Below are positions 1 through 31,238 of a DNA stretch of 32,000 nucleotides, piece by piece. The notes below the pieces were generated by a model. That model saw only the letters and a list, made by a program, of their open reading frames with translations, did not search any database and had not been told where the DNA came from. This stretch comes from Schaalia odontolytica. GTDB lineage: Bacteria > Actinomycetota > Actinomycetes > Actinomycetales > Actinomycetaceae. Made by a program: the position numbers and the translations under genes. Position 1 is the stretch's first letter. Every line of letters starts with the position of its first letter. The DNA is taken from positions 270,001 through 302,000 of the forward strand of contig NZ_CP040006.1 of NCBI RefSeq assembly GCF_005696695.1, read 5' to 3'.

Positions 1-2112
1 TCGGCGGGCCAGGCCTTCGGCGCGCGCGTCTCCTCCGTGGATGGCCACTCGATCGCGACCGGCTCCGACTTTTCCGAGAAGGGCGAGCTGAGCGCGAAGG
101 CGGCCAAGGCCGGCGTCCTCCACCTGGACGAGGCCACGGCCCGCGCCTACGCGCAGGCTCTGTCGGATGCCCCGGCCTCGGTCATCGACTCGGTGACCCG
201 CAAGCCCTACCGTCGCCGCCCGGCAGCCCCCTTCACGACGTCGACCCTCCAGCAGGAGGCGTCGCGCAAGCTGCACTGGAACGCGTCCTCGACGATGCGC
301 ACCGCCCAGTCCCTCTACGAGTCCGGTTACATCACCTACATGCGTACCGACTCCACGGCGCTGTCCAGCCAGGCGATCCACGCCGCCCGCGAGCAGGCCA
401 CCCAGCTCTACGGGGCCGAGGCTGTGGCCGAGTCCCCGCGCCTGTACGGCACCACGTCCAAGGGCGCCCAGGAGGCGCACGAGGCGATCCGTCCTGCGGG
501 TGATCACTTCCGCACGCCGGGCGAGGTGGCCGGTTCTCTGTCGAAGCAGCAGCTGGCGCTGTACGACCTGATCTGGAAGCGCACGGTTGCCTCGCAGATG
601 GCCGACGCTCTCGGCTACACGGCGACGATCCGCGTGCTCACCGGCATCGAGGTTGACGGTAAGCGCCACGACGTGCTGTCCTCGGCCTCGGGCACGGTCA
701 TCACCTCCCCGGGCTTCCGCCTGGCCTACCAGGAGGGCCGCGACCAGGGGCGTTACGACGCGGAAAAGAACGACGCGGAGAAGACCCTCCCGGACGTCGC
801 TGAGGGTGATCCCGCGACGCTGACCGAGGCCACCCCCGACGGCCACGAGACCCAGCCCCCGGGCCGCTACACGGAGGCCACGCTGGTCAAGACCATGGAG
901 GAGCTCGGTATCGGCCGTCCCTCCACCTACGCGGCCACCATCCAGACGATCGGTGACCGCGGGTACGTGACGCACCGCGGCCAGTACCTGGTGCCCACGT
1001 GGCTGGCGTTCTCCGTGACGCGCCTGCTCGAGGAGAACCTGGCGAACCTGGTCGACTACGACTTCACGGCCTCGATGGAGGGCGACCTGGACCGTATCGC
1101 CGCGGGCGAGGAGAACGGCACGGAGTTCCTGACCGGCTTCTTCTTCGGCCCCGACGGCACGGGTGAGAACGGCGGTCTGCGCCACGACGTCGCCTCCCTG
1201 GGCGATGACATCGACGCGCGCGCCGTCAACTCGATCGACCTGGGCCGCGGCGTGACGCTGCGCGTGGGTCGCTACGGCCCCTACATGGAAAAGGCCGACG
1301 GGACGCGCGCGAACGTGCCACCGGAGGTCGCTCCCGACGAGCTGACGGATGAGCTGATCGACCAGCTCTTCTCCCGCGCCGCCGACGATGGCCGTGAGCT
1401 GGGCGTCGACCCCGCGACCGGTCACACGATCATCGTCAAGGATGGCCGCTACGGCCCCTACGTCACCGAGGTCCTGCCCGAGGAGACTGAGGGCGCCGAG
1501 GAAGGCGCGAAGAAGACGAAGAAGGCTGCCGCCAAGCCTCGCACCGCCTCGCTGTTCAAGACCATGGACATCGCGACCGTCACCCTCGAGGACGCCCTGG
1601 CGCTGCTGTCCCTGCCGCGCGAGGTAGGCACGGACCCGGCCTCGGGCGAGGTCATCACGGCGCAGAACGGCCGCTACGGCCCCTACCTGAAGAAGGGCAC
1701 GGACTCGCGCACGCTGGCCTCCGAGGACCAGCTGCTGACCATCACCCTGGACGAGGCCCTGGCCATCTACGCCCAGCCCAAGACGCGCGGCCGCGGCACG
1801 GCCCGCCCGCCGCTGCGCGAGTTCGGCGAGGACCCGATCTCGGGCAAGAAGGTCACCGTCAAGGACGGCCGCTTCGGCCCCTACGTGACGGATGGCGAGA
1901 CCAACGTGACGGTGCCGCGCGCCGAGACGGTGGAGGACCTGACGGCCGAGCGCGCCTACGAGCTGTTGGCAGATAAGCGCGCCAAGGGCCCCGCCCCCAA
2001 GCGCACGCGCAAGACGGCCGCGAAGAAGACGACGACCAAGAAGACGAGCGCGAAGAAGACCACCGCGAAGAAGACGGCCACCAAGAAGGCCGCGACGAAG
2101 AAGGACAGCTGA
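1..2112 (+). CDS. topA: DNA topoisomerase I (type IA), 5'-truncated by the window edge
   Basis: Frame 1 is open from nt 1, so the listed start at 37 is only the first in-frame GTG. Peptide has the type IA active-site region SGYITYMRTDS, TSTLQQEASRKL, repeated C-terminal GRYGPY modules and a Lys-rich tail (KKTTTKKTSAKKTTAKK) typical of actinobacterial TopA. Stop TGA at 2110-2112. Confidence 0.93.
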   Translation, partial: SAGQAFGARVSSVDGHSIATGSDFSEKGELSAKAAKAGVLHLDEATARAYAQALSDAPASVIDSVTRKPYRRRPAAPFTTSTLQQEASRKLHWNASSTMRTAQSLYESGYITYMRTDSTALSSQAIHAAREQATQLYGAEAVAESPRLYGTTSKGAQEAHEAIRPAGDHFRTPGEVAGSLSKQQLALYDLIWKRTVASQMADALGYTATIRVLTGIEVDGKRHDVLSSASGTVITSPGFRLAYQEGRDQGRYDAEKNDAEKTLPDVAEGDPATLTEATPDGHETQPPGRYTEATLVKTMEELGIGRPSTYAATIQTIGDRGYVTHRGQYLVPTWLAFSVTRLLEENLANLVDYDFTASMEGDLDRIAAGEENGTEFLTGFFFGPDGTGENGGLRHDVASLGDDIDARAVNSIDLGRGVTLRVGRYGPYMEKADGTRANVPPEVAPDELTDELIDQLFSRAADDGRELGVDPATGHTIIVKDGRYGPYVTEVLPEETEGAEEGAKKTKKAAAKPRTASLFKTMDIATVTLEDALALLSLPREVGTDPASGEVITAQNGRYGPYLKKGTDSRTLASEDQLLTITLDEALAIYAQPKTRGRGTARPPLREFGEDPISGKKVTVKDGRFGPYVTDGETNVTVPRAETVEDLTAERAYELLADKRAKGPAPKRTRKTAAKKTTTKKTSAKKTTAKKTATKKAATKKDS

Positions 2113-2921
2113 TGGCAGCGCGAGGAGTGTTCATCACCTTCGAAGGCGGCGACGGCTCGGGGAAGTCCACGCAGATCCAGTCGGTGCGCGACTGGTTCGA
2201 GAGCCGTGGCCGCGAGGTCATCGTCACCCGCGAGCCGGGCGGCACCGAGCTGGGCACGGAGATCCGTCGCCTCGTGCAAAACGGCCCCGAGGACGTCGAC
2301 GCGCGCACGGAGGCACTCCTGTACGCGGCCGACCGCGCCTACCACGTCGCCACGGTCATCGCCCCCGCCCTCGAGCGCGGCGCGGTCGTGCTGGGGGACC
2401 GCTACATCGATTCCTCTCTGGCGTACCAGGGTGCGGCCCGCTCCCTCGGTGTGGACGAGATCGCCTCGCTGTCCGCGTGGGCGACCCGCGGCCTCTACCC
2501 TTCGCTGACGTTCCTCCTGGACCTGCCCCCGGAGGTCGGTGCGCGCCGCCGCACCGACGCCCCGGACCGCATGGAGCGCGAGTCCATGGACTTCCACGAG
2601 CGCGTGCGCCACGAGTACCTGCGCCTCGCGGACGCCGAGCCCGACCGCATCGTCGTCATCGACGCGGTGGGCACGGTCGACGAGGTCTTCTCCGAGATCC
2701 GCGGCGTCCTCGTCGAGCGCTTCGAGGGCGGCTCCGTCACGATCGACGAGGCCTCCGACTCCGTTTCCGCGCCGGCTAAGGAGACCCCGGCCTCGTCCTC
2801 TGAGGTTCCCGAGGCCCCCGAGAAGCCGCGCGACAAGAGCGCGGACAAGGGCAGCGCCCGCAAGCCCGCCACCATGGTGGGAGCCCTGGGCGAATCCCAG
2901 GGCGCGCTCTGGGATGAATGA
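2112..2921 (+). CDS. tmk: thymidylate kinase with an acidic/Ser-Pro-rich C-terminal extension of about 60 aa
   Basis: P-loop FEGGDGSGKST, the DRY-containing LGDRYIDSSLAYQG, and the lid region RRRTDAPDRME. The ATG at 2112 shares its A with the topA TGA (TGATG). Confidence 0.92.
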   Translation: MAARGVFITFEGGDGSGKSTQIQSVRDWFESRGREVIVTREPGGTELGTEIRRLVQNGPEDVDARTEALLYAADRAYHVATVIAPALERGAVVLGDRYIDSSLAYQGAARSLGVDEIASLSAWATRGLYPSLTFLLDLPPEVGARRRTDAPDRMERESMDFHERVRHEYLRLADAEPDRIVVIDAVGTVDEVFSEIRGVLVERFEGGSVTIDEASDSVSAPAKETPASSSEVPEAPEKPRDKSADKGSARKPATMVGALGESQGALWDE

Positions 2922-4111
2922 TGAGCGTCTGGTCCTCGCTCGTCGGACAGGACGCGGCGGTCGCTAAGCTCAGCGAGGCCGCGGCGTCCGCCCGCGCGAT
3001 CGTCGCCTCCCGAGGCGGCGCACGGGCCTCCGACGACGCGCGTTCCATGAGCCACGCCTGGCTCATCACCGGCCCTCCCGGGTCTGGTCGTTCCGTCGCA
3101 GCGCGCGCCTTCGCGGCCGCCCTGCAGTGTACGGGTGAGACCGTGGGGTGTGGCCAGTGCGCGGGATGCCGCACGACGATGGGCCGCACGAACGCCGACG
3201 TCGTTTTTGCGGCCACCGAGACCTCGATCATTAACGTGGAGACCGCGCGTTCCCTCGTGCTGCAGGCGCAGTCCTCGCCCTCCCAGGGGCTGTGGCGCGT
3301 CATCGTCGTCGAGGACGCGGACCGCCTCGGCGAGTCCGGCGCGAACGCCCTGCTCAAGGCCATCGAGGAGCCGCCCGAGCACACCGTGTGGCTGCTGTGC
3401 GCCCCCAGCCCCGAGGACATGATCGCCACGATCCGCTCGCGCTGCCGCCACCTCGGCCTGCGTATCCCCACAGCCAGTGCGGTCGCCGACCTGCTCGTGC
3501 GCGAGGGCGTGGCCACCCCCGATGTTGCCCTGGAGGCCGCGCGCGCCGCCCAGTCGCACATCGGCCTGGCCCGAGCGCTCGCCCGCGACCCCCAGATGCG
3601 CGAACGCCGCCGAGCCATCATCACCGCGCCCGCCTCCGTGCGCAGCGTCGGTGAGGCCGTCATGGCCGCCGACCGCCTCCTTGAGACCGCGAAAGCCCAA
3701 GCCGACGCGCAGGTCAGCGAACGAAACGCCCGCGAAAAGGCCGAACTGATGCGCCAGCTCGGCATGGACGAGGGTGAGAGCGCCACCAAGGCCTCGCGCA
3801 CGATGATCCGCCAGCTCGAGGAGGACCAAAAGCGCCGCTCCAAGCGTGCCCTCACCGACGCGATCGACCGCGCCCTCATCGACCTGCTCGCGATCTACCG
3901 AGACGTTCTCATGGTCCAGGTGGGCGGGAACGGCGAACTCATCAACACGGACCTGTCCGACCTCGTGCACCAGATTGCCCAGGACTCCACGCCTCGTCAG
4001 ACCCTCGCGCGCGTCGATCACATCGAGACCGCGCGCAAACGCCTCGTGTCAAACGGCAACCCCCTGCTGGTCCTGGAAGACATGGCGATTTCGCTGCGCC
4101 CCCAAGCCTGA
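2918..4111 (+). CDS. holB: DNA polymerase III subunit delta'
   Basis: AAA+ clamp-loader motifs: HAWLITGPPGSGRS (Walker A), Zn module CGQCAGC, VVEDADRL (Walker B-like) and SRCRHL (sensor). ATGA overlap with the tmk stop. Confidence 0.88.
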   Translation: MMSVWSSLVGQDAAVAKLSEAAASARAIVASRGGARASDDARSMSHAWLITGPPGSGRSVAARAFAAALQCTGETVGCGQCAGCRTTMGRTNADVVFAATETSIINVETARSLVLQAQSSPSQGLWRVIVVEDADRLGESGANALLKAIEEPPEHTVWLLCAPSPEDMIATIRSRCRHLGLRIPTASAVADLLVREGVATPDVALEAARAAQSHIGLARALARDPQMRERRRAIITAPASVRSVGEAVMAADRLLETAKAQADAQVSERNAREKAELMRQLGMDEGESATKASRTMIRQLEEDQKRRSKRALTDAIDRALIDLLAIYRDVLMVQVGGNGELINTDLSDLVHQIAQDSTPRQTLARVDHIETARKRLVSNGNPLLVLEDMAISLRPQA

Positions 4112-4147: not shown

Positions 4148-5764
4148 ATGAAGACACGCTCCATTGCGGCCTGCGCCGTCGCAATCCTCGCCGTCGTCGC
4201 GATCGTCCTGACCGTCGTCGGCTACTACGGAACCCAACGCAGGGGACCAGCCCCCTCGACGACGGCCTCGGCCACGTCCGCGCCGATCCCCGTGTCCGCG
4301 GGCTCCGTGCAGGCCTACTATGATCAGGCGATCGAGTGGGGCGTGTGCGCCGACGGTACCTTCGACACGTTCCAGGGCGTGAACTCCTCGGATGCCAGCG
4401 AGTACCAGTGCGCCTTCCTGAAGGCCCCGCTGGACTGGGAGAACCCCGACGGAGACCAGATCACGCTCGCGCTCGCGATCCACCGCTCCGGCGCGAAGGA
4501 AGCTCCCGCACTGTTCATCAACCCGGGTGGCCCCGGCGGCGCCGTCGTCTCCTCCCTGCCGTACTACGCGACGCAGGGAATCGGCGAGGCCGTAGTCAAC
4601 GCCTACGACATCGTGGCCCTCGATCCGCGTGGCGTCGGCGACTCGACCCCCGTGTTCTGCACGACCGACGCCGAGCGCGACGAGCGCAACGCCGGAGAGG
4701 ACGAGGACGTCGATACCGGCGACGAGTCCCCGCAGTCCGCGGTCGCCTCTGCCCATGAGGACGCCCAAGAGGTCGCCGCGGGGTGCCGCGAACACTCTGG
4801 CAGCCTGTACGAGCACATCGACACCGTGAGCGCTGCCCGCGACTTCGACATGGTGCGCGCCGTCCTCGGCCAGGAAAAGCTCAACCTCCTCGGATACTCC
4901 TACGGCACCTTCCTCGGCGCCACCTACGCGGGCCTCTTCCCTGAGCGCGTCGGTCGCTTCGTGCTTGATGGTGCCCTCGACCCGACCCTCAGCGTCAACG
5001 AGGTCTCCGCCCTCCAGATGCGAGGCCTCGACGCCTCGCTCCAGCACTGGATCTCCGACTGCACCACCCAGGCCACCTGCCCGATGGGACGCAACCTCCA
5101 GGAAGGCATCGAGACCGTGCGCTCGTTCCTCGACTCCCTCGAGGATAACCCGATGCGCACGAACGACCCGAACCGTCCGCTCACCGAAAACCTGGCCGTC
5201 ACCGCGCTCACCGGCGCCATGTACAACACCCAGTGGTGGCCCCAGCTCACCCAGGCCTTCGGCATGGCCTGGCAGAAGAGCGACGGCAGCGGCCTGCTCG
5301 CCATCGCTGACACGCTGAACTCGCGCAACCCCGACGGCACCTACCAGGACAATTCCTTCGACGCGATCAACGCGATCAACAACCTCGACTACTCGCCCGA
5401 AGGCACCATCGAGGAGTGGGCCGCCCAGGTGGAGACACTCAAGAACGAACTGCCGATCCTCGGCAAGTACGTGGGCTACCCGTCGGCCGGCCTCGAGGCG
5501 TGGCCCACGAAGCACGCGCCCCGCTCGCGCATCACCGCGCAGGGAGCCGCTCCCATTGTCGTCATCGGCACGACCCACGACCCGGCGACCCCCTACTCGA
5601 TGGCTCAGGGCCTGTCGGGCCAGCTCGCCAGTGGTGTCCTCGTCACCGTCGAAGGCTGGAACCACACCGCCTACCGCCGCGGCGCCAACCAGTGCGTCAC
5701 GCGCGCCGTCGAAGACTACTTCGTGAAGGGAACCGTGCCCGCCGACGGCCTCATGTGCCAGTAG
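4148..5764 (+). CDS. secreted/membrane-anchored alpha/beta hydrolase (tripeptidyl-aminopeptidase / TAP-like family)
   Basis: N-terminal hydrophobic segment IAACAVAILAVVAIVLTVVG and nucleophile elbow GYSYGT. The length and the C-terminal region (TTHDPATPY ... GWNHT) are typical of actinobacterial TAP-like proline/tripeptidyl peptidases. Confidence 0.85.
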   Translation: MKTRSIAACAVAILAVVAIVLTVVGYYGTQRRGPAPSTTASATSAPIPVSAGSVQAYYDQAIEWGVCADGTFDTFQGVNSSDASEYQCAFLKAPLDWENPDGDQITLALAIHRSGAKEAPALFINPGGPGGAVVSSLPYYATQGIGEAVVNAYDIVALDPRGVGDSTPVFCTTDAERDERNAGEDEDVDTGDESPQSAVASAHEDAQEVAAGCREHSGSLYEHIDTVSAARDFDMVRAVLGQEKLNLLGYSYGTFLGATYAGLFPERVGRFVLDGALDPTLSVNEVSALQMRGLDASLQHWISDCTTQATCPMGRNLQEGIETVRSFLDSLEDNPMRTNDPNRPLTENLAVTALTGAMYNTQWWPQLTQAFGMAWQKSDGSGLLAIADTLNSRNPDGTYQDNSFDAINAINNLDYSPEGTIEEWAAQVETLKNELPILGKYVGYPSAGLEAWPTKHAPRSRITAQGAAPIVVIGTTHDPATPYSMAQGLSGQLASGVLVTVEGWNHTAYRRGANQCVTRAVEDYFVKGTVPADGLMCQ

Positions 5765-5827
5765 GGACGTGACTCACGACATCCTGCTGTGGGGTGTCCT
5801 GGTTTGCGCTCGGCGCGATTCGTCCAG

Positions 5828-5833
5828 TAGAGT
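5828..5833 (+). promoter_or_regulatory. possible -10 (TAGAGT) for tRNA-Thr
   Basis: A TANNNT hexamer lies about 46 nt upstream of the mature tRNA 5' end. No clear -35. Confidence 0.25.
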
Positions 5834-5879
5834 TGTGCCGTTGCCTGCACGCCCCGGAAACGGTGGAACGGCGGGCGCG

Positions 5880-5952
5880 GCCGCCTTAGCTCAGTCGGCA
5901 GAGCGATTCACTCGTAATGAATAGGTCGTGGGTTCGATTCCCACAGGCGGCT
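5880..5952 (+). tRNA. tRNA-Thr (anticodon CGT, reads ACG)
   Basis: Hand-folded cloverleaf. Acceptor GCCGCCT/AGGCGGC, D arm GCTC-AGTCGGCA-GAGC, anticodon arm ATTCA-CTCGTAA-TGAAT, variable loop AGGTC, T arm GTGGG-TTCGATT-CCCAC, discriminator T. CCA is not encoded. Confidence 0.95.
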
Positions 5953-5957
5953 CAGAT

Positions 5958-5988
5958 ACGCCCACCCGGTTTCGGGTGGGCGTTTTTG
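5958..5988 (+). terminator. intrinsic terminator after tRNA-Thr
   Basis: Perfect hairpin ACGCCCACCCG-GTTT-CGGGTGGGCGT followed by TTTTT. Confidence 0.7.
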
Positions 5989-6039
5989 TATGGCCTCGTG
6001 GTGCGTGGTGCTTGGTGCCCCACGGGTGTTCCGGGCGCC

Positions 6040-6850
6040 GGAGGGCCCGGCCGCCCGCGAGGCTAGGCGGCCTCACTTCGTTCGGCGCCGCGCCTCGAAG
6101 CCCGCCCGTGCCCTCCGGTCCCTCCGGCGCCCTCCACACCTGTGGTGCCTGGTTGCTGACGTGTAGTTTGGCGCGTCGTCTCGAAGCCCGGCCAGGCCCC
6201 GCCGCCGCCCACGGACGCCGCAGCCAGGTCCACCAATCCCTCCGGCGCCCTCCACACCAGTGGCGCTTGGTTGCTGATGTGTGGCTTGGCGCGTCGTCTC
6301 GAAGCCCGGCCAGGCCCCGCCGCCCACGGGCACCGCTGCCAGGCCCTGTCGGCCAGGCGGCCTGGCTGTCTGAAACCGCCGTCACCTTTGCGGGTGCTGG
6401 TCGAGCCTCAGCTGAAACCGGTGTCGCCTTTGCGGGTGAGCAACGGGCGTTTTTGGTGCGTTTTTCGGTTGCAGTGGTGTCATCGGTTTCAACGGTTGCT
6501 ATTCAGGGGCGCGCAGTGGTGATGGTGGTTTCATCGTCGCCACGTCACAGCTGCCCGTGCGTGAAAAAGTTCGCCCTGCTTGGTCTGATGCTGGGCGTGA
6601 GCGCGACAAAGTTCGCCCAGCGCGCTCAAAATGGCCCAAATTCGGCGTTTTGTGGCGTGCTGGGCGAGTTTTTCGCGGAAATGCCAGTGGAGGGGCGGTG
6701 TTGGGCGAACTTTGTTACTGCGTGGGCCTGGCAGCTGGGCCCCACTACTGGCAGCGTTAACCCTTCAATGCGCAGCTAAACCTCATAGGTGGCGTGGTGG
6801 GCGGCCTGCCCACGCAGCCACCTATCGGGTTAACGTGCGCGTGAGAGGGG
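6040..6850 (+). repeat. composite non-coding intergenic repeat element, copy A
   Basis: Colinear with 29660-30615. Shared blocks: TCGAAGCCCGGCCAGGCCCCGCCGCC...CTCCGGCGCCCTCCACACC; 27-bp CTGAAACCG..TCGCCTTTGCGGGTG (6370-6396, 6412-6438); TTTTTCGGTTGCAnTGGTGT..GGTTTCAA..TTCAGGGGCG..TGGTGATGGTGGTTTCA; the 16-bp GTGAAAAAGTTCGCCC family; terminal GGGTTAACGTGCGCG (6827-6841). Boundaries are approximate. Confidence 0.8.
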
Positions 6851-7060
6851 TTTGGTGAAGCTTCAGTTGCATATCGGCGCGTTGCGCCGTCGTGCTCCTG
6901 TAGGTCTCCGGCCCAAATGCCGGCCCCCAACCGCATGAGGCAACCGTGGCCTCGGGCAAGATTGGTTAGGCGAACCTGGCCTGAAAAATGAAAGCGTCAA
7001 TGATCTTAAAACGCTGAAATCCGAGGATTATTCCCTCGTCGCTAACGGATAGTGAAACAT

Positions 7061-7088
7061 TTGACTAAACGGTGGATAGCACTAGAAA
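7061..7088 (+). promoter_or_regulatory. candidate sigma-A type promoter for dps (TTGACT, 16 nt, TAGAAA)
   Basis: -35 TTGACT at 7061-7066, 16-nt spacer, -10 TAGAAA(T) at 7083-7088, in a locally AT-richer 300-nt leader. The implied 5' UTR is about 90 nt. Confidence 0.4.
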
Positions 7089-7182
7089 TCCTGGGACCAA
7101 AGGGCCAAGATGGATGTGTCTGAAGGGCATGGCCCCACAAGGGTGAGCCCCGTACCGAATACACATGCATAGGAGAAACAAC

Positions 7183-7653
7183 ATGACCGTTGAGTCCACC
7201 GGCTTCAAGGCTTCCGACGTTCTCGCAGGCAACCTGCAGAAGGTCCTCACCGACGTGACCGCTCTGTCCCTCGTGGGCAAGCAGCTGCACTGGAACATCA
7301 CCGGCGAGGGCTTCCGCTCGCTGCACCTCTACCTCGACGCGGTCGTGGACATCGCCCGCGAGGCCTCCGACGAGATCGCCGAGCGCATGCGCGCCCTCCA
7401 GGTCGTCCCCAACGGCCTGCCCGAGGTCGTCGCCCAGCGCAATACCCTGCCGACCGTCCCCGAGACGATCATCAAGACCACTGACGCCGAGGAGCTCGCC
7501 GTCGCCGCCATCAACGCGACCGTCGGCACCATGCGCGACGTGCACGAGAAGGTCGACGCCGAGGATTCCGCCTCCGCCGACATCCTCAACGACTACATCC
7601 GTCGCTTCGAGCAGCAGGCGTGGTTCATCCGTTCTCAGAACGGCCAGGCCTGA
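7183..7653 (+). CDS. dps: Dps family DNA starvation/stationary-phase protection protein (mini-ferritin)
   Basis: Ferroxidase-region motif LHWNITGEGFRSLHLYLD. The ATG at 7183 is preferred over 7165 because AGGAGA (7171-7176) lies 6 nt upstream. Confidence 0.92.
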   Translation: MTVESTGFKASDVLAGNLQKVLTDVTALSLVGKQLHWNITGEGFRSLHLYLDAVVDIAREASDEIAERMRALQVVPNGLPEVVAQRNTLPTVPETIIKTTDAEELAVAAINATVGTMRDVHEKVDAEDSASADILNDYIRRFEQQAWFIRSQNGQA

Positions 7654-19300: not shown

Positions 19301-20728
19301 TTAGTTGGTGTCGGGCGTGAAGGCGACGATCGCGCCGCTGCGAGCCCCGATGAGCAAGTCGTCGTAGACCCACACGAAGGTTGTCAGGTCTTCGAGGCTC
19401 GGCGACACGAACGTCATCGGGTCCTCCGTGTTGAAGAAGAACGTCTGTGTGGGAGCAGACGCCAGGCCCTGGATATAGAGCGCCCTGCCGTCAGCGCTGG
19501 CGCGCATCTGGGCGGCCGACCACGTGTCGGTCGAGAACATCTCGGGGAAGGACTCGCCGGGATTGACGGTGTGAGTGTCGCCCCCGCTGCTGACCATCAG
19601 GGTGTAGCCGTTGGTGTTCTTGGAAAAGACGCGCTCCACCGTTGCCGTCGTCCACGGCGCAATGCCCTGCGTCAAGAAGGCACCGAGGTCTGCAACGCTC
19701 GGGAGCTCGCGGTCTGAGGTTGGGAGCTTGTCGAGCTCCCAGGCGGACCCGAAGGTGCCCACGACATTCCCCGCGGTGTCGTAGCCGACGGTCTCCTCCT
19801 CGCCGGCTACGAGGATGCCGTCGTTCGCCAGCGTGATCCTCGACGAGGTGCGGGCGCTCGCGGAAGGCGCGTCCCCGAGCGTCGTGAGTGCTCCCGTGGC
19901 CGGGTTGATGATCTGCGGAGCGTGGTGGGCCTCGTCGACGGGGACGACCACGGCGGCTTCCGTGCCGGTGCCGATGACGGCCGTCGTGGGCTTCGTGATC
20001 CCCGAGTGGGCGAGGCCCATGCGGCGCTGAGGCGAGGTCTGAGTGGTCCAGAGCCTCGTCCATTCTCCCGAGTCGTGGGACCATCCGGAGCACGAGCTGA
20101 AGGTGTCGCAGGTGACGAGGACGCCGCCCGCCACCCCCATCGGGAGGTCGAAGCCCCAGGGCGCCTGAGTCTGCTCGCCGGTTGACCGATCCACGATGAT
20201 GTCGCTGAGCAGGATCTCTCCCTCGGTTGTGACGGAGGAGGGGAATGCCTCGGCGCGTATACGGGACGGATTCGGCCCGGTCGTGCTCCACTGAACGACC
20301 GGCTCGACGCCCGAGACGTCGTAGGCGGACACAGTGGTCACTGCGTCGGTGCCGCTTCCGTAGGTCAGCGTGTACAGGGTCGAGCCTTCGGTGATCAGCT
20401 GCGCTGGTAGGAGAGAACCGTCCTCGGCAAGGAGCGTCCACGCCCTTGCAACGCCCGAGGCCCACTTGCTCGAGAGCTCGCCCGTGCTGGTCGCCTCTCC
20501 GTGGTAGCCGATCGCATTCAGTCGCCCCTCCCGTTGCGGGCCATGAATGTGCGGTTCGGGTACCCCACGACGGCTGTCAGAGAGGTAAAGGAGGCCGGCG
20601 CCGAGTAAGAATGCGAGAACGATGCCGAAGATCGCGATGATAGCGACACTGATCAGGAAGAGGGGCGTCTTCCGTGAACGTCTGGGCTGGGGGGAGTCAG
20701 TCCCGGACTGGGGGTCGTTGGTGCTCAC
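19301..20728 (-). CDS. paralog family member A: N-in single-pass membrane anchor plus a beta-rich extracytoplasmic domain of about 400 aa, function unknown
   Basis: Colinear motif conservation with 20767-22233, 22283-24184 and 24738-26453. TM segment LFLISVAIIAIFGIVLAFLLGAGLL is preceded by PRRSRK. The GTG at 20728 (VSTNDP, AAGG 8 nt upstream) is preferred by analogy with the M(S/T)ND starts of the other members. The longest ORF starts at the GTG at 20770, overlapping the paralog B stop as GTGA. Confidence 0.85.
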   Translation of the reverse strand: MSTNDPQSGTDSPQPRRSRKTPLFLISVAIIAIFGIVLAFLLGAGLLYLSDSRRGVPEPHIHGPQREGRLNAIGYHGEATSTGELSSKWASGVARAWTLLAEDGSLLPAQLITEGSTLYTLTYGSGTDAVTTVSAYDVSGVEPVVQWSTTGPNPSRIRAEAFPSSVTTEGEILLSDIIVDRSTGEQTQAPWGFDLPMGVAGGVLVTCDTFSSCSGWSHDSGEWTRLWTTQTSPQRRMGLAHSGITKPTTAVIGTGTEAAVVVPVDEAHHAPQIINPATGALTTLGDAPSASARTSSRITLANDGILVAGEEETVGYDTAGNVVGTFGSAWELDKLPTSDRELPSVADLGAFLTQGIAPWTTATVERVFSKNTNGYTLMVSSGGDTHTVNPGESFPEMFSTDTWSAAQMRASADGRALYIQGLASAPTQTFFFNTEDPMTFVSPSLEDLTTFVWVYDDLLIGARSGAIVAFTPDTN

Positions 20729-20766
20729 AAGCTGTGCCTTTTCTGTCGTTGCCCGATACGAGGGAG

Positions 20767-22233
20767 TCACGAGGCCTTCGGGGTGAACGCCACGATGCCG
20801 TCGACCGTCACGCCGATGGCTAGGTCATCGAAGGGCCACGAGAGGTGCTCTGCGTCGCGGAACTCGTCCGATCCGTGTCCCTGCCCGCTCGCGGTGTCGA
20901 AGAAGAACCTGTTGCCCCTGTTGGTGTGATCGACGGACTCGACGTACACGACCGACGTGTCGGCGCTGGCGCGAACCTCGGAGGGCCAAAAAGTGCTGAC
21001 GTAGTGATGCTGGTCGTTATTCCCGGCATCAAGAGTGAAGGGGGGACGCCCGTCGCTCGGCGTCACCGTGAGGCTGAAGGGGGTGCCGGCCGCCGCGTTG
21101 CTTGGGGCTGTGACCGACGCGTTCGACCACGCTGGGCGGGCACCGGCCAGGAAATCTCCTAGTTCGGCCGTGGTCGGCATGCGTCCATCGCGTGTTGGCA
21201 TCCTCTTCATCTGCTTGTAGGTCTGGGTCCCCGTGATGAAGCCATCGGCGTCGTAGGTGACGAAGAAGTCATCGTTGAAAGCCAGGAGCCCATCGCTGGT
21301 GATCACAAAAGACACAACGTTGTTCTGTCTGTCCCTGAAAGGACTCACAGAACCGACGTTCGTGATCTGCCCGGTGTGCGGATCGAGGAGCTGCGCCAGG
21401 TGTGTCTGTGCATCGACGGGCAGGACGACCGCCTGGTGCTCCCCGTTACCGATCACAGGTGTATCGGGGTAGGTGAGCTTATCTAACGCGGACAGGGTGC
21501 CTTTTTGGCTGGCAGTGGCCGTCTCCCACTGGCGCTCCCACGATGAGGCCTCCTGCGTCCAGCCCGAGCAGGCCCGTTTGTGATCGCAGGCCACGACGAT
21601 GCCATCAACGGCCGCGAGTGCTTCCGACCCCTCCCAGGGAGCCGAGGACTGCGCTCCCGACGTCTTGTCGATGACGATGCTGTCGATGAGGAATTGATCC
21701 CTGTAGGACACGAAGGTGGGTCGCCCGAGCGATTTGGGGAGGGGCCCCGTCGTGCGCCACAGCTCGCGCGGCTGCTCGGAAGAGATGTCGAAGGCCGCTG
21801 CAGTGACCTGGTGGGCGGCGGGATTGGGGTCTTCGAAGAGGGCGTACAGGGTGGTGCCCTCCACGGTCGTGAGTGCCCGGGAGCCGTACTTCGTGGAGGG
21901 GAAGGGGATCCTCCATGCCGTTTCGACGCCCGAGGCCCAGGCGGGGGAGATAGATCCCGTGCTCGTGGCGTCCCCTGAGTATCCGACGGTGGGCATCGAG
22001 GTAAATGAACGCTGATCGCCCGGTGTCGAGGGTGAGGGGCTGAGTCGGTGGATACCGATGATAGTGGCGATCGCGACAGCGGCCAGGAAAACCACGAGAA
22101 GGGCAGCCTTCGCGTGGCTCTTCGGACGAGGTTGGGGCGGGCCGGGCTGGGGGTTTGGGGGCGCTCCGCCGGGTGGCACCCACTCCGCGGCATGCGTGGG
22201 AGTATTCATGCCCGTGTGATCGTCATTGGTCAT
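20767..22233 (-). CDS. paralog family member B (488 aa), same architecture, function unknown
   Basis: Pro-rich cytoplasmic tail (PPGGAPPNPQPGPPQPRPK), TM ALLVVFLAAVAIATIIGI, and an ectodomain sharing the family motifs (GYSGDATSTGSISPAWASGV..AW, IDKTSGAQSSAPW, CDHKRACSGW, VRASAD, FFFD, FDDLAIG....GIVAFTP). Confidence 0.85.
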   Translation of the reverse strand: MTNDDHTGMNTPTHAAEWVPPGGAPPNPQPGPPQPRPKSHAKAALLVVFLAAVAIATIIGIHRLSPSPSTPGDQRSFTSMPTVGYSGDATSTGSISPAWASGVETAWRIPFPSTKYGSRALTTVEGTTLYALFEDPNPAAHQVTAAAFDISSEQPRELWRTTGPLPKSLGRPTFVSYRDQFLIDSIVIDKTSGAQSSAPWEGSEALAAVDGIVVACDHKRACSGWTQEASSWERQWETATASQKGTLSALDKLTYPDTPVIGNGEHQAVVLPVDAQTHLAQLLDPHTGQITNVGSVSPFRDRQNNVVSFVITSDGLLAFNDDFFVTYDADGFITGTQTYKQMKRMPTRDGRMPTTAELGDFLAGARPAWSNASVTAPSNAAAGTPFSLTVTPSDGRPPFTLDAGNNDQHHYVSTFWPSEVRASADTSVVYVESVDHTNRGNRFFFDTASGQGHGSDEFRDAEHLSWPFDDLAIGVTVDGIVAFTPKAS

Positions 22234-22239
22234 GAGTAG

Positions 22240-22248
22240 TTTCTATCA
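22240..22248 (-). promoter_or_regulatory. TGATAGAAA motif, 6 nt before the paralog B ATG (candidate leaderless promoter)
   Basis: The minus strand reads GTGATAGAAActactcATGACCAATGAC. The same module occurs at paralogs C and D. Confidence 0.4.
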
Positions 22249-22282
22249 CATGGCAGTGTCGGTGTGATAGACGATCGTGACC

Positions 22283-24184: not shown

Positions 24185-24190
24185 GACACG

Positions 24191-24199
24191 TTTCTACCA
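24191..24199 (-). promoter_or_regulatory. TGGTAGAAA motif, 6 nt before the paralog C ATG (candidate leaderless promoter)
   Basis: The minus strand reads GTGGTAGAAAcgtgtcATGAGCAACGAC. Confidence 0.4.
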
Positions 24200-24227
24200 C
24201 GTTGCGTGCCCGGCGGGCGCTCGCGGG

Positions 24228-24722
24228 TTACTCCTCGGCGCGCACCATGAGGGCGCTCGCCAGCGCGGCCACGCCCTCGCCTCGGCCCGTGAAACCCAGG
24301 TGATCCGAGGTCGTCGCTGACACGGTGACCGTGCCCCCGGCGATCTCGCTCATGACCGCGCAGGCCTCGGGCAGTCGCGCGGCCATACGAGGTCGGTTCC
24401 CCACGACCTGCACGGTCGCGTTACCGAGCACCCAGCCGGCCTCGGCGGTCATGCGGCGAACCTCCTCAAGGAGCGCGCGCCCCGAAGCGCCCGCCCACTC
24501 GGGGCGATCCACGCCGAACACCGTGCCGAGCTCGCCCAGCCCAGTGGCCAGCAGCATCGCGTCGCACAGGGCGTGCGCGGCCACGTCCGCGTCCGAATGC
24601 CCCTCGAGGGGGCGCTCGCCCGGCCACTCCAGGCACGCGACCATCAGAGGACGGGGCGAGTCGGGTGCGGCGAACGCGTGGACGTCGACCGCTTGGCCGA
24701 TGCGGAAAGGCAGATCAGTCAT
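24228..24722 (-). CDS. ispF: 2-C-methyl-D-erythritol 2,4-cyclodiphosphate synthase
   Basis: GQAVDVHAF (Zn ligands Asp/His), [12 protein letters not shown] and [16 protein letters not shown]. Confidence 0.93.
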
Positions 24723-24728
24723 GGAACC

Positions 24729-24734
24729 AGGGTA
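24729..24734 (-). promoter_or_regulatory. -10-like hexamer TACCCT, 6 nt before the ispF ATG (candidate leaderless promoter)
   Basis: The minus strand reads TGAcgcTACCCTggttccATG, inside the 15-nt gap after the paralog D stop. No SD present. Confidence 0.3.
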
Positions 24735-24737
24735 GCG

Positions 24738-28174: not shown

Positions 28175-29632
<1,458 letters not shown>

Positions 29633-29659
29633 GCTGCGGCTGATCCGCGGCTGAGGCCG

Positions 29660-30615
29660 GGCTGCTTGATGCGCCCATGGGCGGCGGCCCGCCCGCTCGC
29701 CGTCCGCGCCGCGAGCTTCGCTCGGCGCGTCGGCTCGAAGCCCGGCCAGGCCCCGCCGCCGCCCACAGGCGCCGCAGCCAGGCCCTCCGGTCCCTCCGGT
29801 CCCTCCGGCGCCCTCCACACCAGTGGGGCCTGGTCGCTGTTGTCTGGTTCGGCGCGTTGTTTTGGCGCCTGTCCGGGCCCCGCCGCTGCCCCTGGGTATC
29901 GCATCTGGGTCCTGTAGACCAGACGGCCCGCTTGTCTGAAACCGCTGTCGCCTGTGCTCGTGAGTGCCTGCGTGGGCTTGAAACCGCCATCGCTTTTGCG
30001 GGCACAGGCTGAGCTTCGACTGAAACCGGCATCGCCTTTGCGGGTGAGAATTGGGTGCTTTTGGCGCGTTTTTCGGTTGCATTGGTGTTGCCGGTTTCAA
30101 TGGGTGTTGTTCAGGGGCGAGCATTGGTGATGGTGGTTTCACGCTGGCCTGTATCAGTGGTTGCAGAGGTGTCATTGGTTTCAAAGTCGCCACGGGCCGG
30201 GTCCTGCGCGTGAAAAAGTTCGCCCAGCACGGCCTGATTGTGGGTGTGAGCGTGAAAAAGTTCGCCCTGCGCGCTCGAAACACCCCAAATTTGACGTTTT
30301 TAAGGTTGCTGGGCGAACTTTGTCACGGGTTGAGTGGGGGAGAGGGCGTGCTGGGCGAATTATGTCACGCCTGCCGGCCCGCCACTGCCACCAGCCCCGG
30401 CCCGCCACTGCCTGCCGGCCCCACGGCCAGGCCTTGCGGTGCCTACGGCACCCTCCACATCGGTGACGGTGGGGGGTGTGCGCGACACGAAGCCTTCTAG
30501 CAGTGTGTCGTCGGTGTGTCGGACCCCCGTGTCGTGCAATTCCCCTGTTTGGCGGGTGTGAGTTTATGGCTTGGAGGACCCACGTGCGGATTGGCGGGTT
30601 AACGTGCGCGATCAG
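29660..30615 (+). repeat. composite non-coding intergenic repeat element, copy B
   Basis: Colinear with 6040-6850 in the same orientation. 27-bp CTGAAACCG..TCGCCTTTGCGGGTG-type motif at 29936-29962, 29977-30003 and 30020-30046. 16-bp motif at 30210-30225 and 30252-30267 (direct), and 30311-30326 and 30353-30368 (inverted). Terminal GGGTTAACGTGCGCG at 30596-30610. Boundaries are approximate. Confidence 0.8.
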
Positions 30616-30689: not shown

Positions 30690-31238
30690 ATGGAGTACGT
30701 GGCGCTGCTGCGCGGCATCAACGTCGGTGGCAAGAACAAGGTCGTCATGAGCGAGCTGCGCGAACAGATCGCCGCCGAAGGCTTCATAAACGTGCGCACC
30801 TACATCAACAGCGGCAACCTCCTCTTTGAGGCCGGGGCCGACGCCCCGCGCGATAACGTGGCCCAGGTGGTCGAGGACCTCCTGGCTCGCCGATACGACT
30901 TCCCGATCCGACTGGCCCTCCTGACGGTGCAGGACTACCTCGCGGAGCTGCACAGTCTCCCCGACTGGTGGCACGGTGAGGTCGCCCGCCGCGACGCGCT
31001 CTTCTACACACGAGGCCTGGACCGCTCCCACGTGCGTGAGCGCATCGAGGCGATGGAGCTCGGAGACGAGGCCGTACACTTCGGCGAGCACGCCGTGTTC
31101 TGGGGCAAGTTCGACGAGAAGAACTTCCTGAGGACCGCCTACCACAAGCGCCTCCTGCGCGAGGACTTCTATCGTCAGGTGACGATACGCTCCGGTTCGA
31201 CGGTCGAGAAGATCGCAGCCATGCTGTCGCAGGGCTGA
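30690..31238 (+). CDS. DUF1697 domain-containing protein
   Basis: N-terminal YVALLRGINVGGKNKVVMSELR is the hallmark of the DUF1697 family. GGGGAGGA SD upstream. Confidence 0.85.
   Translation: MEYVALLRGINVGGKNKVVMSELREQIAAEGFINVRTYINSGNLLFEAGADAPRDNVAQVVEDLLARRYDFPIRLALLTVQDYLAELHSLPDWWHGEVARRDALFYTRGLDRSHVRERIEAMELGDEAVHFGEHAVFWGKFDEKNFLRTAYHKRLLREDFYRQVTIRSGSTVEKIAAMLSQG

Follow-up and report, generated by a model that had tools for sequence, protein, structure and literature searches.

A multi-copy, G·U-tolerant intergenic mosaic repeat in Schaalia odontolytica and related Actinomycetaceae

Results

Two copies of a mosaic repeat behind tRNA-Thr and cysS

The window, i.e. the whole stretch of 32,000 nucleotides that was analysed (contig NZ_CP040006.1, positions 270,001 to 302,000), is 100 % identical to LLVT01000001.1 of Schaalia (Actinomyces) odontolytica strain XH001. 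It contains two copies, A and B, of a mosaic repeat of 0.85-1 kb, for which Schaalia intergenic mosaic element is used as a working name. Copy A is situated between the genes for tRNA-Thr(CGT) and Dps, copy B between cysS, whose stop codon is ~13 nt 5' of it, and a DUF1697 gene (Table 1).

Table 1 Features of the two copies and of their flanks, in window coordinates
Feature	Position	Strand	Basis and details
tRNA-Thr(CGT), directly upstream of copy A	5880..5953	+	ARAGORN; Rfam tRNA 72.8 bits
Intrinsic-terminator-like hairpin with T-run, 3' of tRNA-Thr; copy A starts just past it	5958..5983	+	
Copy A, whole mosaic repeat	6000..6850	+	Similarity depth profile; colinear with copy B
A-H0, GC-rich, ~118-nt tandem units	6017..6365	+	Repeat families, inverted pairs
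M3 (CCCTCCGGCGCCCTCCACACCAGTGG) in A-H0	6120, 6238; inverted 6020-6045		
M4 (GGCGCGTCGTCTCGAAGCCCGGCCAGGCCCCGCCGCC) in A-H0	6170, 6288		
A-H1, TGAAACC array	6371..6533	+	Direct 6371, 6413; 63-nt turn; inverted 6476, 6518; 42 nt apart
A-H2, array with core GYGAMAAAGTTCGCCC	6555..6722	+	Direct 6563, 6605; inverted ~6659, 6700
A-M5, 3' module	6761..6849	+	Hairpin, then GGGTTAACGTGCGCG (6827-6841)
dps (ferritin-like), downstream of copy A	7165..7653	+	Pfam PF00210
cysS, directly upstream of copy B	28175..29632	+	ORF; Pfam tRNA-synt_1e / CysS_C on the identical gene in L005
Copy B, whole mosaic repeat	29645..30615	+	Similarity depth profile; alignment to copy A
B-H0	29650..29930	+	M4 29724, 29851 (degenerate); M3 29801
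9-nt CCCTCCGGT run in B-H0, x2.9	29783-29808		
B-H1, TGAAACC type	29937..30183	+	Direct 29937, 29979, 30021; inverted 30084, 30126, 30168; 42 nt apart
B-H2, GTGAAAAAGTTCGCCC type	30205..30372	+	Direct 30212, 30254; 54-nt turn; inverted 30308, 30350
B 3' modules	30440..30553	+	Degenerate M3 30441-30466; M6 hairpin 30472-30545 ending TGCAATTCCCCTGTTTGG
B-M5 motif GGGTTAACGTGCGCG, final module ahead of the downstream gene	30596..30610	+	
DUF1697 gene, downstream of copy B	30690..31238	+	PF08002

An initial annotation of this DNA had proposed two colinear stretches of one family, and the alignment agrees: copies A and B are colinear with a mean column identity of 74 %, individual blocks reaching 82 % over 163 nt and 79 % over 119 nt. 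The extent of the copies was taken from the depth of shared similarity, which increases at 6000 and 29650 and drops off at ~6850 and 30560-30615; across 6000-6850 the number of other loci sharing similarity with copy A goes from 1 up to 18-77. The start given earlier for copy A (6040) has to be moved to near 6000, just past the tRNA-Thr terminator. In other genomes, the region upstream of dps is homologous from ~6769 onwards, inside A-M5.

The reiterated sub-motifs described earlier were all found, and were confined to the two copies. The 17-mer GAAAAAGTTCGCCCWGC has 7 matches with up to 3 mismatches (0.09 expected), and TGAAACCGNNRTCRCC has 10 (1.04 expected). The unit spacing of 41-42 nt throughout A and B had been missed. 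A single additional segment of ~45 nt had been assigned to copy B, which is correct for the sub-range then compared; overall, copy B has two additional units of 41-42 nt, one in each arm of the TGAAACC array (3+3 compared to 2+2 in copy A).

Each copy reads H0, H1, H2 and then the 3' hairpin modules. H0 is a GC-rich 5' block of ~118-nt units. H1 consists of n direct TGAAACC units spaced by 42 nt, a 63-nt turn and m inverted units with the same spacing, and H2 of n direct units spaced by 41-42 nt, a 54-nt turn and m inverted units at 41-42 nt. The H2 units, 42 nt long and first direct, then inverted, share the near-invariant core GCGCGAAAAAGTTCGCCC (the M2 core), which holds the palindrome GCGAA-N4-TTCGC. 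M6 and M5 are small hairpin modules at the 3' side; M6 recurs at other loci, and the similarity depth over the 3' modules of copy B is 15-24 loci.

Coding potential and transcription signals

In agreement with the initial annotation, the element has no coding potential. An ORF of 283 aa spans 5928-6779, and its GC content is flat over the codon positions (0.67/0.65/0.67) compared to ~0.65/0.50/0.90 in the true genes of the window. Together with the 1-nt indels between A and B, which break the frame, and the mixed 41/42-nt spacing, this rules out a coding reading. No transposase ORF was found within the element, in keeping with the initial view that it would be non-autonomous if it moves at all. 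Gene callers place 'hypothetical proteins' of 200-390 aa on the antisense strand of elements.

The element hairpins are not intrinsic terminators of the type GC-rich hairpin plus U-tract: no U-tract terminator was found at them, including 3' of H1, H2 or M5, and the terminator-like sites in A and B show no excess over shuffles. Neither was a sigma-70-like promoter found on the + strand within or ahead of copy A or B. Transcripts of copy A, which follows a good intrinsic terminator of the tRNA-Thr gene, would have to arise by read-through or from a promoter of its own.

A family with conserved sites and variable unit numbers

Genomes were scanned for exact matches to two M2 cores 42 nt apart, and the counts of loci refer to the matches listed. 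The fixed module order was found at about 60 loci among these matches, in at least 10 genomes of Schaalia, Pauljensenia and 'Actinomyces', with at least 15 loci in one genome and at least 11 in another. The repeat is thus dispersed, as the initial annotation had supposed, and not confined to the two loci of the window. Matches outside the Actinomycetaceae lacked the other modules and are attributed to chance or to unrelated tandem repeats. Over the family, the element measures 0.85-1.7 kb. The 5' ends differ between copies, and at some loci H2 occurs without the other modules (L017b, L078, L101, L129).

The M2 core of ~18-20 bp is near-invariant over paralogues and species, and the spacers between cores vary; part of this invariance stems from the exact-match pattern by which loci were ascertained, and loci fetched by protein have the same core. 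The unit patterns range from ++-- and ++--- up to ++---------, so the numbers in the two arms are often unequal (e.g. 2 and 9), and one locus (L095) carries 8.5 perfect 42-nt copies in a run. At the cysS-DUF1697 site the unit number depends on the strain, and the intergenic length ranges from 1057 to ~1670 nt. The arrays gain and lose entire 42-nt units.

The same site was used for assessing occupancy. The search for DUF1697 homologues gave relatives that were all at least 89 % identical; the element was present in 20 of 20 strain contigs, i.e. no empty orthologous site was found among the cysS-DUF1697 contigs of these relatives. Nor was presence/absence polymorphism seen across strains and species. 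The element is thus non-coding, multi-copy and kept at orthologous sites across strains and species, and with the same sites occupied throughout, recent mobility is not evident. Transposases of the IS256 and IS3 families, in or beside elements, were the only recurrent neighbours, and no Y1/HUH gene (RAYT-like) was seen adjoining any copy in the sequences analysed.

Orientation relative to genes

At distinct sites between genes of the same direction, the element was co-oriented with them in 13 of 14 cases and opposite in one. Convergent gene pairs flank about 9 sites, and divergent pairs 1-3. The genes that precede the element are housekeeping genes unrelated to one another: cysS, tRNA-Thr, asd, dnaB, rpsA, the DUF3566 gene beside gyrA and others. 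At nearly every locus the G·U-rich strand (see below) is the strand given by the module order, and at almost all tandem-gene sites the flanking genes are read in the coding sense on this G·U-tolerant strand.

Folding and strand-specific G·U pairing

Extensive folding had been proposed as possible for the element, and RNA folds of the + strand bear this out, with z = -9.4 (A) and -6.9 (B) relative to shuffles. On the + strand, A-H1 forms a single long G·U-rich hairpin (-92.1 kcal/mol, 13 G·U pairs, vs -58.3 and 1 on the - strand), and A-H2 also forms a long hairpin (-104.5 and 16 vs -71.1 and 0). The corresponding values were -129.5 and 23 vs -79.1 and 2 for B-H1, and -93.9 and 9 vs -83.0 and 2 for B-H2. 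Summed over the hairpins of the window, 61 G·U pairs occur on the + strand vs 5 on the - strand. H0 was not supported as a structured module, as A-H0 folds near its shuffles (z = -2.5 on +, -2.2 on -).

Complementarity between the arms of H1 and of H2 depends on accepting G·U (or G·T) pairs, and it holds only for the strand that reads H0, H1, H2, M5. In the arm-to-arm comparison, G·T outnumbers A·C by 252 to 13 cells in H1 and by 65 to 9 in H2. In nearly all H1 inner hairpins the G+T content of the sense strand is 0.62-0.70, and the GC skew of the element sense strand is +0.2. Of the H1 cells, 90.9 % pair, compared to 41-49 % when the partners are slid, and several G·U positions are conserved.

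Covariation in H1 is only modest: 19 cells carry double changes vs 11.4 in shuffles, and one of 500 shuffles was as high. In H2 covariation is uninformative because the cores hardly vary. The central two positions of the H2 unit are invariably GT in direct units and AC, GT or AG in inverted ones. Only in the sense strand can each of the two common inverted alleles, AC and GT, pair with the GU that all direct units carry. A 'compensatory' change of CG to UA is present in every one of the four units of copy B, and such changes could derive from gene conversion between inverted units. The near-invariance of the M2 core and the scant covariation fit sequence-specific recognition, by a protein or through homogenisation, better than a purely structural role.

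Discussion

Comparison with known repeats and RNAs

The initial annotation had recognised no known class in this element, and the wider search led to the same result. In Rfam, at gathering and E-value thresholds, tRNA-Thr alone passed, which rules out a known RNA family; the best other models were miRNA precursors, far from passing with 22 bits vs a threshold of 268. Phage and plasmid sequences gave no blastn match to the element, and the 31 viral contigs with the two-core pattern contained unrelated short-period repeats and not the architecture, so that a phage, plasmid or viral origin was rejected. The searchable literature held nothing relevant on a described Actinomyces or Schaalia repeat or on a non-coding RNA of XH001. 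The family is thus apparently undescribed. A CRISPR array is ruled out as the complete 42-nt unit repeats, including the part between cores (100 % identity in L095), and the 'spacers' are common to several copies. Resemblances of the cores to the SOS box, the parS half-site and the GlnR box were dropped due to misfits in spacing or symmetry.

In architecture the element recalls several bacterial mosaics. As with the BIME/REP sequences of Escherichia coli, it is an extragenic multi-copy mosaic that combines several kinds of conserved motif (five to six module types, at about 60 loci among the matches listed), with hairpin-forming units in both orientations after genes and single-stranded structure (RNA or ssDNA) as a central property. 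REP units, however, are palindromes of ~35-40 nt that alternate in orientation, whereas in Schaalia a direct run is followed by an inverted run and the hairpin forms between the runs. The element also has no GTAG-type head, is 0.85-1.7 kb long and shares no sequence similarity with REP. With BOX of Streptococcus pneumoniae (boxA-boxBn-boxC) it shares a fixed module order, an internal module of ~45 nt in variable number, predicted stem-loops if transcribed and over-representation after genes, a likeness of architecture only. Unlike BOX, whose ends resemble the terminal inverted repeats of insertion sequences and whose host belongs to another phylum, the Schaalia element has two unit arrays, each with its own long hairpin, and a far more conserved core.

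Other comparisons are more distant. NIMEs of Neisseria are large intergenic mosaics after genes, in which the repeat units are flanked by dRS3 inverted repeats; the Schaalia element is likewise a large intergenic mosaic after genes, but no short repeat bounds each unit. Correia elements differ from it in being MITEs of ~100-150 bp that have terminal inverted repeats together with a TA duplication. MITEs in general are smaller than about 0.6-0.8 kb and lack a transposase; no transposase ORF was found in the Schaalia element, and its size is 0.85-1.7 kb. Mycobacterial MIRU/VNTR loci are similar in being intergenic tandem units of 40-100 bp, variable in number between strains of a high-GC actinobacterium. 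MIRUs are, however, direct tandem units with short in-frame ORFs overlapping the neighbours, and the Schaalia units are both direct and inverted; the mixed 41/42-nt spacing and the flat codon-position GC show no such ORFs in copies A and B.

Possible functions and alternative explanations

In our view copies A and B are members of a lineage-specific intergenic mosaic repeat family of the Schaalia/Pauljensenia branch of the Actinomycetaceae, the hairpins of which would lie in a 3' extension of transcripts; we assign this reading a probability of about 0.5. Transcription would reach the element by read-through or by prolonging the upstream transcript at its 3' end, and H1 and H2 would then fold into long imperfect RNA hairpins with a duplex of ~20 bp for each plus/minus pair of units. 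These hairpins may cap the 3' ends structurally or be sites of processing, e.g. by blocking 3'-to-5' exonucleases, by separating or insulating transcription units from each other or as a substrate of RNase III. There are precedents among other repeats: pneumococcal BOX elements are co-transcribed with their neighbours, give rise to spurious ORF calls and have been suggested to act as stabilisers at the 3' side (PMC3049150), and Correia elements are RNase III substrates once transcribed (as cited in PMC3049150). The unit number would drift through replication slippage or unequal recombination, and the copies would provide homology for rearrangement as well as tolerated landing sites for insertion sequences. 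It is conceivable, although we give it little credence, that the family forms a multi-copy riboregulatory appendage, in which 0.5-1 kb of sense RNA on housekeeping 3' ends, with ~20 bp M1/M2 duplexes every 42 nt, provides a platform for a dedicated protein or nuclease and the unit number sets the fate of the mRNA.

An alternative that we find unlikely, yet take first, is a REP/REPIN-like element acting as single-stranded DNA, where hairpins form on the lagging-strand template, an HUH/Y1-type enzyme or replication and repair factors spread and homogenise the copies, and the orientation follows the replication fork. The confinement of G·T-tolerant hairpins to one strand would be expected, the near-invariant core would suit recognition by an enzyme, and with DNA parameters the + strand folds better (-90.3, z = -5.2, vs -74.9, z = -3.9). 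On the two gyrA-DUF3566 contigs (L028 and L051, oriC being placed beside gyrA), all five other elements point away from the origin side, on either side of it, with the sense strand on the lagging-strand template, so that single-stranded DNA explains them equally well; these data are too few to tell the effects of transcription and replication apart, which are confounded here. The elements on supercontig 1.1 of HPA0247 are likewise in one orientation (4 of 4). However, no Y1/HUH gene was seen beside any copy, only IS256 and IS3 transposases recurring, and the sites are conserved between species and strains, where no presence/absence polymorphism came to light. The agreement with gene direction (13 of 14) is somewhat above the 60-70 % that we estimate for an effect of replichore only, and in its size of 0.85-1.7 kb and its unit arrays the element departs from REPs.

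Double-stranded DNA could also be the functional form, the arrays binding a dimeric nucleoid-associated, regulatory or partition-like protein on one helix face and the hairpin potential being a by-product, which to us seems rather improbable. The palindromic M2 core and its recurrence at 41-42 bp (about four helical turns) would let the arrays load such a dimer. An almost invariant core of ~18-20 bp between variable spacers, the strict spacing with fixed turns of 54 and 63 bp and the tolerance of unequal numbers of direct and inverted units are all in line with this. A duplex site, however, gives no reason for the preference of G·T over A·C, for the different constraint on direct and inverted units at the central two positions or for the bias in gene orientation, and the motif is absent elsewhere in the window, e.g. 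from promoters.

Improbable to a further degree is a functionless, decaying and non-autonomous MITE-like remnant with several sub-terminal transposase sites per end, kept because DNA after genes tolerates it. The direct-then-inverted arrangement of the sites recalls the paired ends of transposons, no transposase is encoded in the element, solitary H2 modules occur, and, as with parasitic repeats (PMC3049150), copies are enriched past gene ends and between convergent genes. No terminal inverted repeats join the ends of copy A or B, where the inverted repeats are internal to modules, or bound the composite or solitary H2 forms, and recognisable target-site duplications were not found. Neutral decay would not predict the G·U asymmetry or the orientation rule, and core sequence and pairing are retained across species at orthologous sites. 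Least probable of all is a free-standing, multi-copy gene for a large non-coding RNA, independent of the upstream mRNA: its own promoter would account for transcription of copy A past the terminator and the strong sense-strand structure fits, but it is opposed by the lack of a sigma-70-like + strand promoter in or ahead of A or B, by the heterogeneous 5' ends and by the absence of an Rfam relative.

Significance

Strain XH001 of S. odontolytica serves as the model host for the Saccharibacteria epibiont TM7x; to our knowledge its non-coding genome is essentially unstudied. The elements have practical consequences for work with these genomes. Short-read and metagenome assemblies break at them, many contigs ending inside, and chimeric joins arise from them (L169). 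Insertion sequences are drawn to them, and the antisense 'hypothetical proteins' which gene callers report there are spurious. On the other hand, the elements offer strain markers of the VNTR kind. With its near-invariant core and one-strand G·U signature, the family provides a clean test case for distinguishing between RNA, single-stranded DNA and protein-binding DNA as the functional form. The elements, which add about 1 kb after many housekeeping genes (e.g. cysS, dnaB, rpsA, asd and the region beside gyrA), may shape transcript ends and the insulation of genes, and rearrangement of the genome in a common oral genus may likewise be influenced by them.

Structure of the two copies

Copies A and B of the mosaic repeat are chains of modules in identical order (Table). 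Their alignment has a mean identity of 74 %, rising to 82 % in a block of 163 nt and to 79 % in one of 119 nt, which bears out the colinearity proposed in the initial annotation. The sub-motifs quoted there are genuine and, within the window, restricted to the two copies: a 17-mer of motif M2 (in H2) has 7 matches against 0.09 expected, and a 16-mer of M1 (in H1) has 10 against 1.04. The extra 45-nt segment ascribed to copy B is real as additional DNA, but is actually one of two additional 42-nt units, one in each H1 arm. Copy B and its flanks are 100 % identical on NCBI contig LLVT01000001.1 (GCA_001462375.1), which also bears the DUF1697 protein gene. This contig belongs to draft genome LLVT00000000, from strain XH001 of Actinomyces odontolytica subsp. 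actinosynbacter (genus now Schaalia), host of the epibiont TM7x.

Features of the two copies, their surroundings and compared loci (window coordinates unless a locus of another assembly, L, is named)
Feature	Position	Description
tRNA-Thr(CGT)	5880-5953	upstream neighbour of copy A
Terminator-like hairpin	5958-5983	3' of tRNA-Thr(CGT)
Copy A	~6000-6850	sharp limits, from per-position count of other fetched loci with similarity
dps	7165-7653	downstream neighbour of copy A
cysS	28175-29632	upstream neighbour of copy B
Copy B	~29650 to 30560-30615	sharp limits, same count
DUF1697 gene	30690-31238	downstream neighbour of copy B
Module H0	A 6017-6365; B 29650-29930	GC-rich, C-rich; tandem units of ~118-127 nt with motifs M4, M3
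Module H1		27-mer units CTGAAACCGGTGTCGCCTTTGCGGGTG; A 2 direct + 2 inverted, B 3 direct + 3 inverted
Module H2		unit core G(C/T)GAAAAAGTTCGCCC; A and B each 2 direct + 2 inverted
Module M6		3' module of copy B; hairpin with TGCAATTCCCCTGTTTGG as its end
Module M5		3' module of A and B; hairpin, then GGGTTAACGTGCGCG
CCCTCCACA in M3	6129-6137, 6247-6255, 29810-29818, 30450-30458
19-nt pair	6328-6346 with 6724-6742	89 % complementary
11-nt tandem repeat	29627-29664	GGCTGAGCYGC x3.5
Long ORF	5928-6779
Paralogous genes	19301-26453 (- strand)	four in tandem; 489, 488, 633, 571 aa
ispF	24228-24722	among the paralogues
15-nt coding repeat	2011-2103	AAGACGACCACGAAG x6
691-aa ORF	37-2112
IS256-family transposase	L001 7990-9215; L056 ~5000-7250; L087 upstream of 3008
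Start of dps-upstream homology	~6769; L002 755-900; L056 7253; L086 3104
L169 (ENA ERZ27319641 k141_51410)	1-3000	alpha/beta-hydrolase gene, element, DUF1697 gene
L098 (Actinomyces sp. HPA0247)	717-1876	three successive H2-type arrays inside 1.2 kb
L176 inserts	2280-2760; ~1585-1720	between H2 and DUF1697 gene; within H0

Every H1 unit lies 42 nt from the next, with a turn of 63 nt, and the H2 units are 41-42 nt apart with a turn of 54 nt. H0 often begins with an inverted M3, which pairs with the first direct M3. The stretch CCCTCCACA in M3 is compatible with the degenerate actinobacterial DnaA-box consensus, (T/C)(T/C)(G/A/C)TCCACA, so that each element would hold 2-3 such boxes, if this is not a coincidence. 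The 19-nt pair encloses H1 and H2 of copy A, whose hairpins it could bring together in a multi-branch junction; copy B has no clear counterpart of it. The 11-nt tandem repeat runs across the stop codon of cysS into the beginning of copy B.

The copies lack coding potential, as had been stated on first inspection. The long ORF starts within the tRNA gene and its codon-position GC is flat (0.67/0.65/0.67) compared to ~0.65/0.50/0.90 in genuine genes of the window, and 1-nt indels separate copy A from copy B; a coding reading was rejected on these grounds. In public data, ORFs of 195-392 aa without Pfam matches have been annotated antisense to the element by gene callers.

The window contains other repeats. 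The paralogues around ispF have DNA repeat families D3, D6, D8, D14, D17 and D18 in common; none matches Pfam at E <= 0.01, and the public gene table likewise gives them no Pfam entry. At its C-terminus the 691-aa ORF has a lysine-rich tail, encoded by the 15-nt repeat.

Distribution and stability of the family

One genome per species was scanned for pairs of M2 cores ~42 nt apart, and at least 120 stretches matched. About 60 loci among these listed matches have the composite architecture in unchanged order, and the family is thus dispersed, as was proposed. Their hosts are Schaalia, Pauljensenia and 'Actinomyces' genomes and two mislabelled clinical isolates, with at least 15 loci in strain 352_XCEL, at least 11 in Pauljensenia sp. 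27098_8_107 and at least 4-5 in several others. Listed matches in other phyla lack the remaining modules and were rejected as members. No relative was found in Rfam or in phage, plasmid and viral-contig searches, and full-text literature searches returned no description of this repeat, in agreement with the initial annotation, which recognised no known class.

Unit numbers are highly variable among loci (+-- up to ++---------), and in one locus (L095) the 42-nt unit occurs 8.5 times in perfect copies, indicating recent slippage or unequal exchange. Orthologous sites are nevertheless occupied across species (e.g. post-dnaB, after the gyrA-adjacent DUF3566 gene and in the cysS-DUF1697 interval). 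The last site carries an element in 20 of 20 strain contigs examined, with differing unit counts and intergenic lengths of 1057 to ~1670 nt. Such sharing of sites indicates an old, vertically kept family, and recent transposition is not evident.

Numerous metagenome contigs terminate within the element. L169 joins the upstream side of copy A (the alpha/beta-hydrolase gene) to the downstream side of copy B and represents either two sequences wrongly assembled across the repeat (a chimera) or a recombinant, in which case ~23.6 kb, cysS included, would have been deleted. One IS256-family (Pfam Transposase_mut) transposase lies in or beside elements of three assemblies, and in strain 352_XCEL an IS3-family integrase/transposase adjoins elements at two contig ends; insertions into the elements may be favoured or simply tolerated. 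The dps-upstream homology in three other genomes starts at one point, the 5' edge of M5, and L002 has two M5 modules without H0-H2, an AT-rich small membrane-protein gene lying upstream in their place; module borders thus behave as rearrangement breakpoints. One strain lineage (the ten contigs L176-L185; positions for L176) has an extra AT-richer insert of ~500 nt with dense direct and inverted GGATAGG/CCTATCC repeats of iteron-like look, and a second AT-rich insert.

Strand-specific pairing

The extensive folding that had been anticipated was obtained when H1 and H2 of copy A were folded as RNA, at -205.7 kcal/mol (z = -9.4) on the + strand and -139.8 (z = -4.8) on the - strand. Copy B gave -230.5 (+) and -175 (-) with z = -6.85 for both, so composition explains part of the energy difference, and pair types are a cleaner strand measure. 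G·U pairs in the four window hairpins number 61 on the + strand and 5 on the - strand, and almost all members of the family are G·U-rich on the strand that reads the modules in order (sense). Folding of the L098 arrays gave 120 G·U pairs for one strand and 9 for the other.

When 33 inner hairpins of H1 and 21 arrays of H2 were aligned, G·T exceeded A·C among paired cells (252 vs 13 in H1, 65 vs 9 in H2). Of the H1 cells 90.9 % pair, compared to 41-49 % with partners slid 1-3 columns, several positions being G·U in 24-29 of the 33 copies. Double-change cells (e.g. CCA:UGG vs GUG:CAC) numbered 19 against 11.4 in shuffles, a value reached in 1 of 500 shuffles. At the H2 centre direct units retain GU, opposite which inverted units have AC or GU, each allele pairing with GU solely on the sense strand. 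This one-strand signature indicates a single-stranded sense-strand nucleic acid, either RNA or the matching DNA strand. H0 had no significant structure on either strand in the fold test.

Placement and interpretation

Placement was assessed with a crude GC3-based gene finder, flanking proteins being clustered so that each site counted once. Between tandem genes the element has the orientation of the genes at 13 sites and the opposite at 1; ~9 sites are convergent and just 1-3 divergent. The upstream neighbours are mutually unrelated housekeeping genes. The pattern fits an element borne at the 3' end of the preceding gene's transcript, and resembles the reported distribution of pneumococcal BOX, RUP and SPRITE repeats, which share transcripts with their neighbours (PMC3049150). 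Our preferred reading, given about an even chance (roughly 0.5), is an intergenic mosaic repeat specific to this lineage, in which the arrays of H1 and H2 act as long RNA hairpins within a 3' extension of the preceding gene. Directly demonstrated are the module anatomy, the number of copies, the pairing on one strand, the conservation of sites and the orientation relative to genes.

A REP-like element acting as single-stranded DNA is possible, though clearly less probable. The + strand is also the better folder under DNA parameters, and on two contigs with gyrA-DUF3566 as origin-side marker the other five elements, whichever side of the origin they lie on, are directed away from it, so that their sense strand is the lagging-strand template. 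The sites are too few to separate transcription from replication as the cause of orientation.

The M2 core (GCGCGAAAAAGTTCGCCC.GC, with the palindrome GCGAA-N4-TTCGC) is nearly invariant across every unit and copy, also in loci retrieved via proteins instead of the motif, while the spacers between cores vary. This points to sequence-specific recognition or homogenisation, beyond a mere stem. In the XH001 lineage C-G became U-A in all four copy B units together, which may be due to gene conversion among the units or to selection that favours pairing. An array bound by protein as double-stranded DNA would suit the palindromic core and a unit spacing of four helical turns, but is contradicted by the G·T asymmetry and seems unlikely. 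We regard a decaying MITE-like remnant as still less likely; terminal inverted repeats were looked for and none were found. A free-standing non-coding RNA gene is the least probable reading.

The nearest analogues, BIMEs, BOX, NIMEs and MIRU-type VNTRs, are likewise extragenic, mosaic and hairpin-forming, with variable internal units and placement 3' of genes. In contrast to them, the element has units running direct-then-inverted instead of alternating palindromes, two distinct arrays each forming one long hairpin, a size of 0.85-1.7 kb without terminal inverted repeats, an unusually invariant core and sites stable across species. By sequence and by their defining features it is outside these families. 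Returning to hairpins in a 3' extension, we infer that the element is transcribed and has its effect at the RNA level. The arrays would drift in length via 42-nt slippage, and the H1 and H2 hairpins would likely serve as a 3' cap against exonucleases, a transcription-unit barrier or an RNase III substrate.
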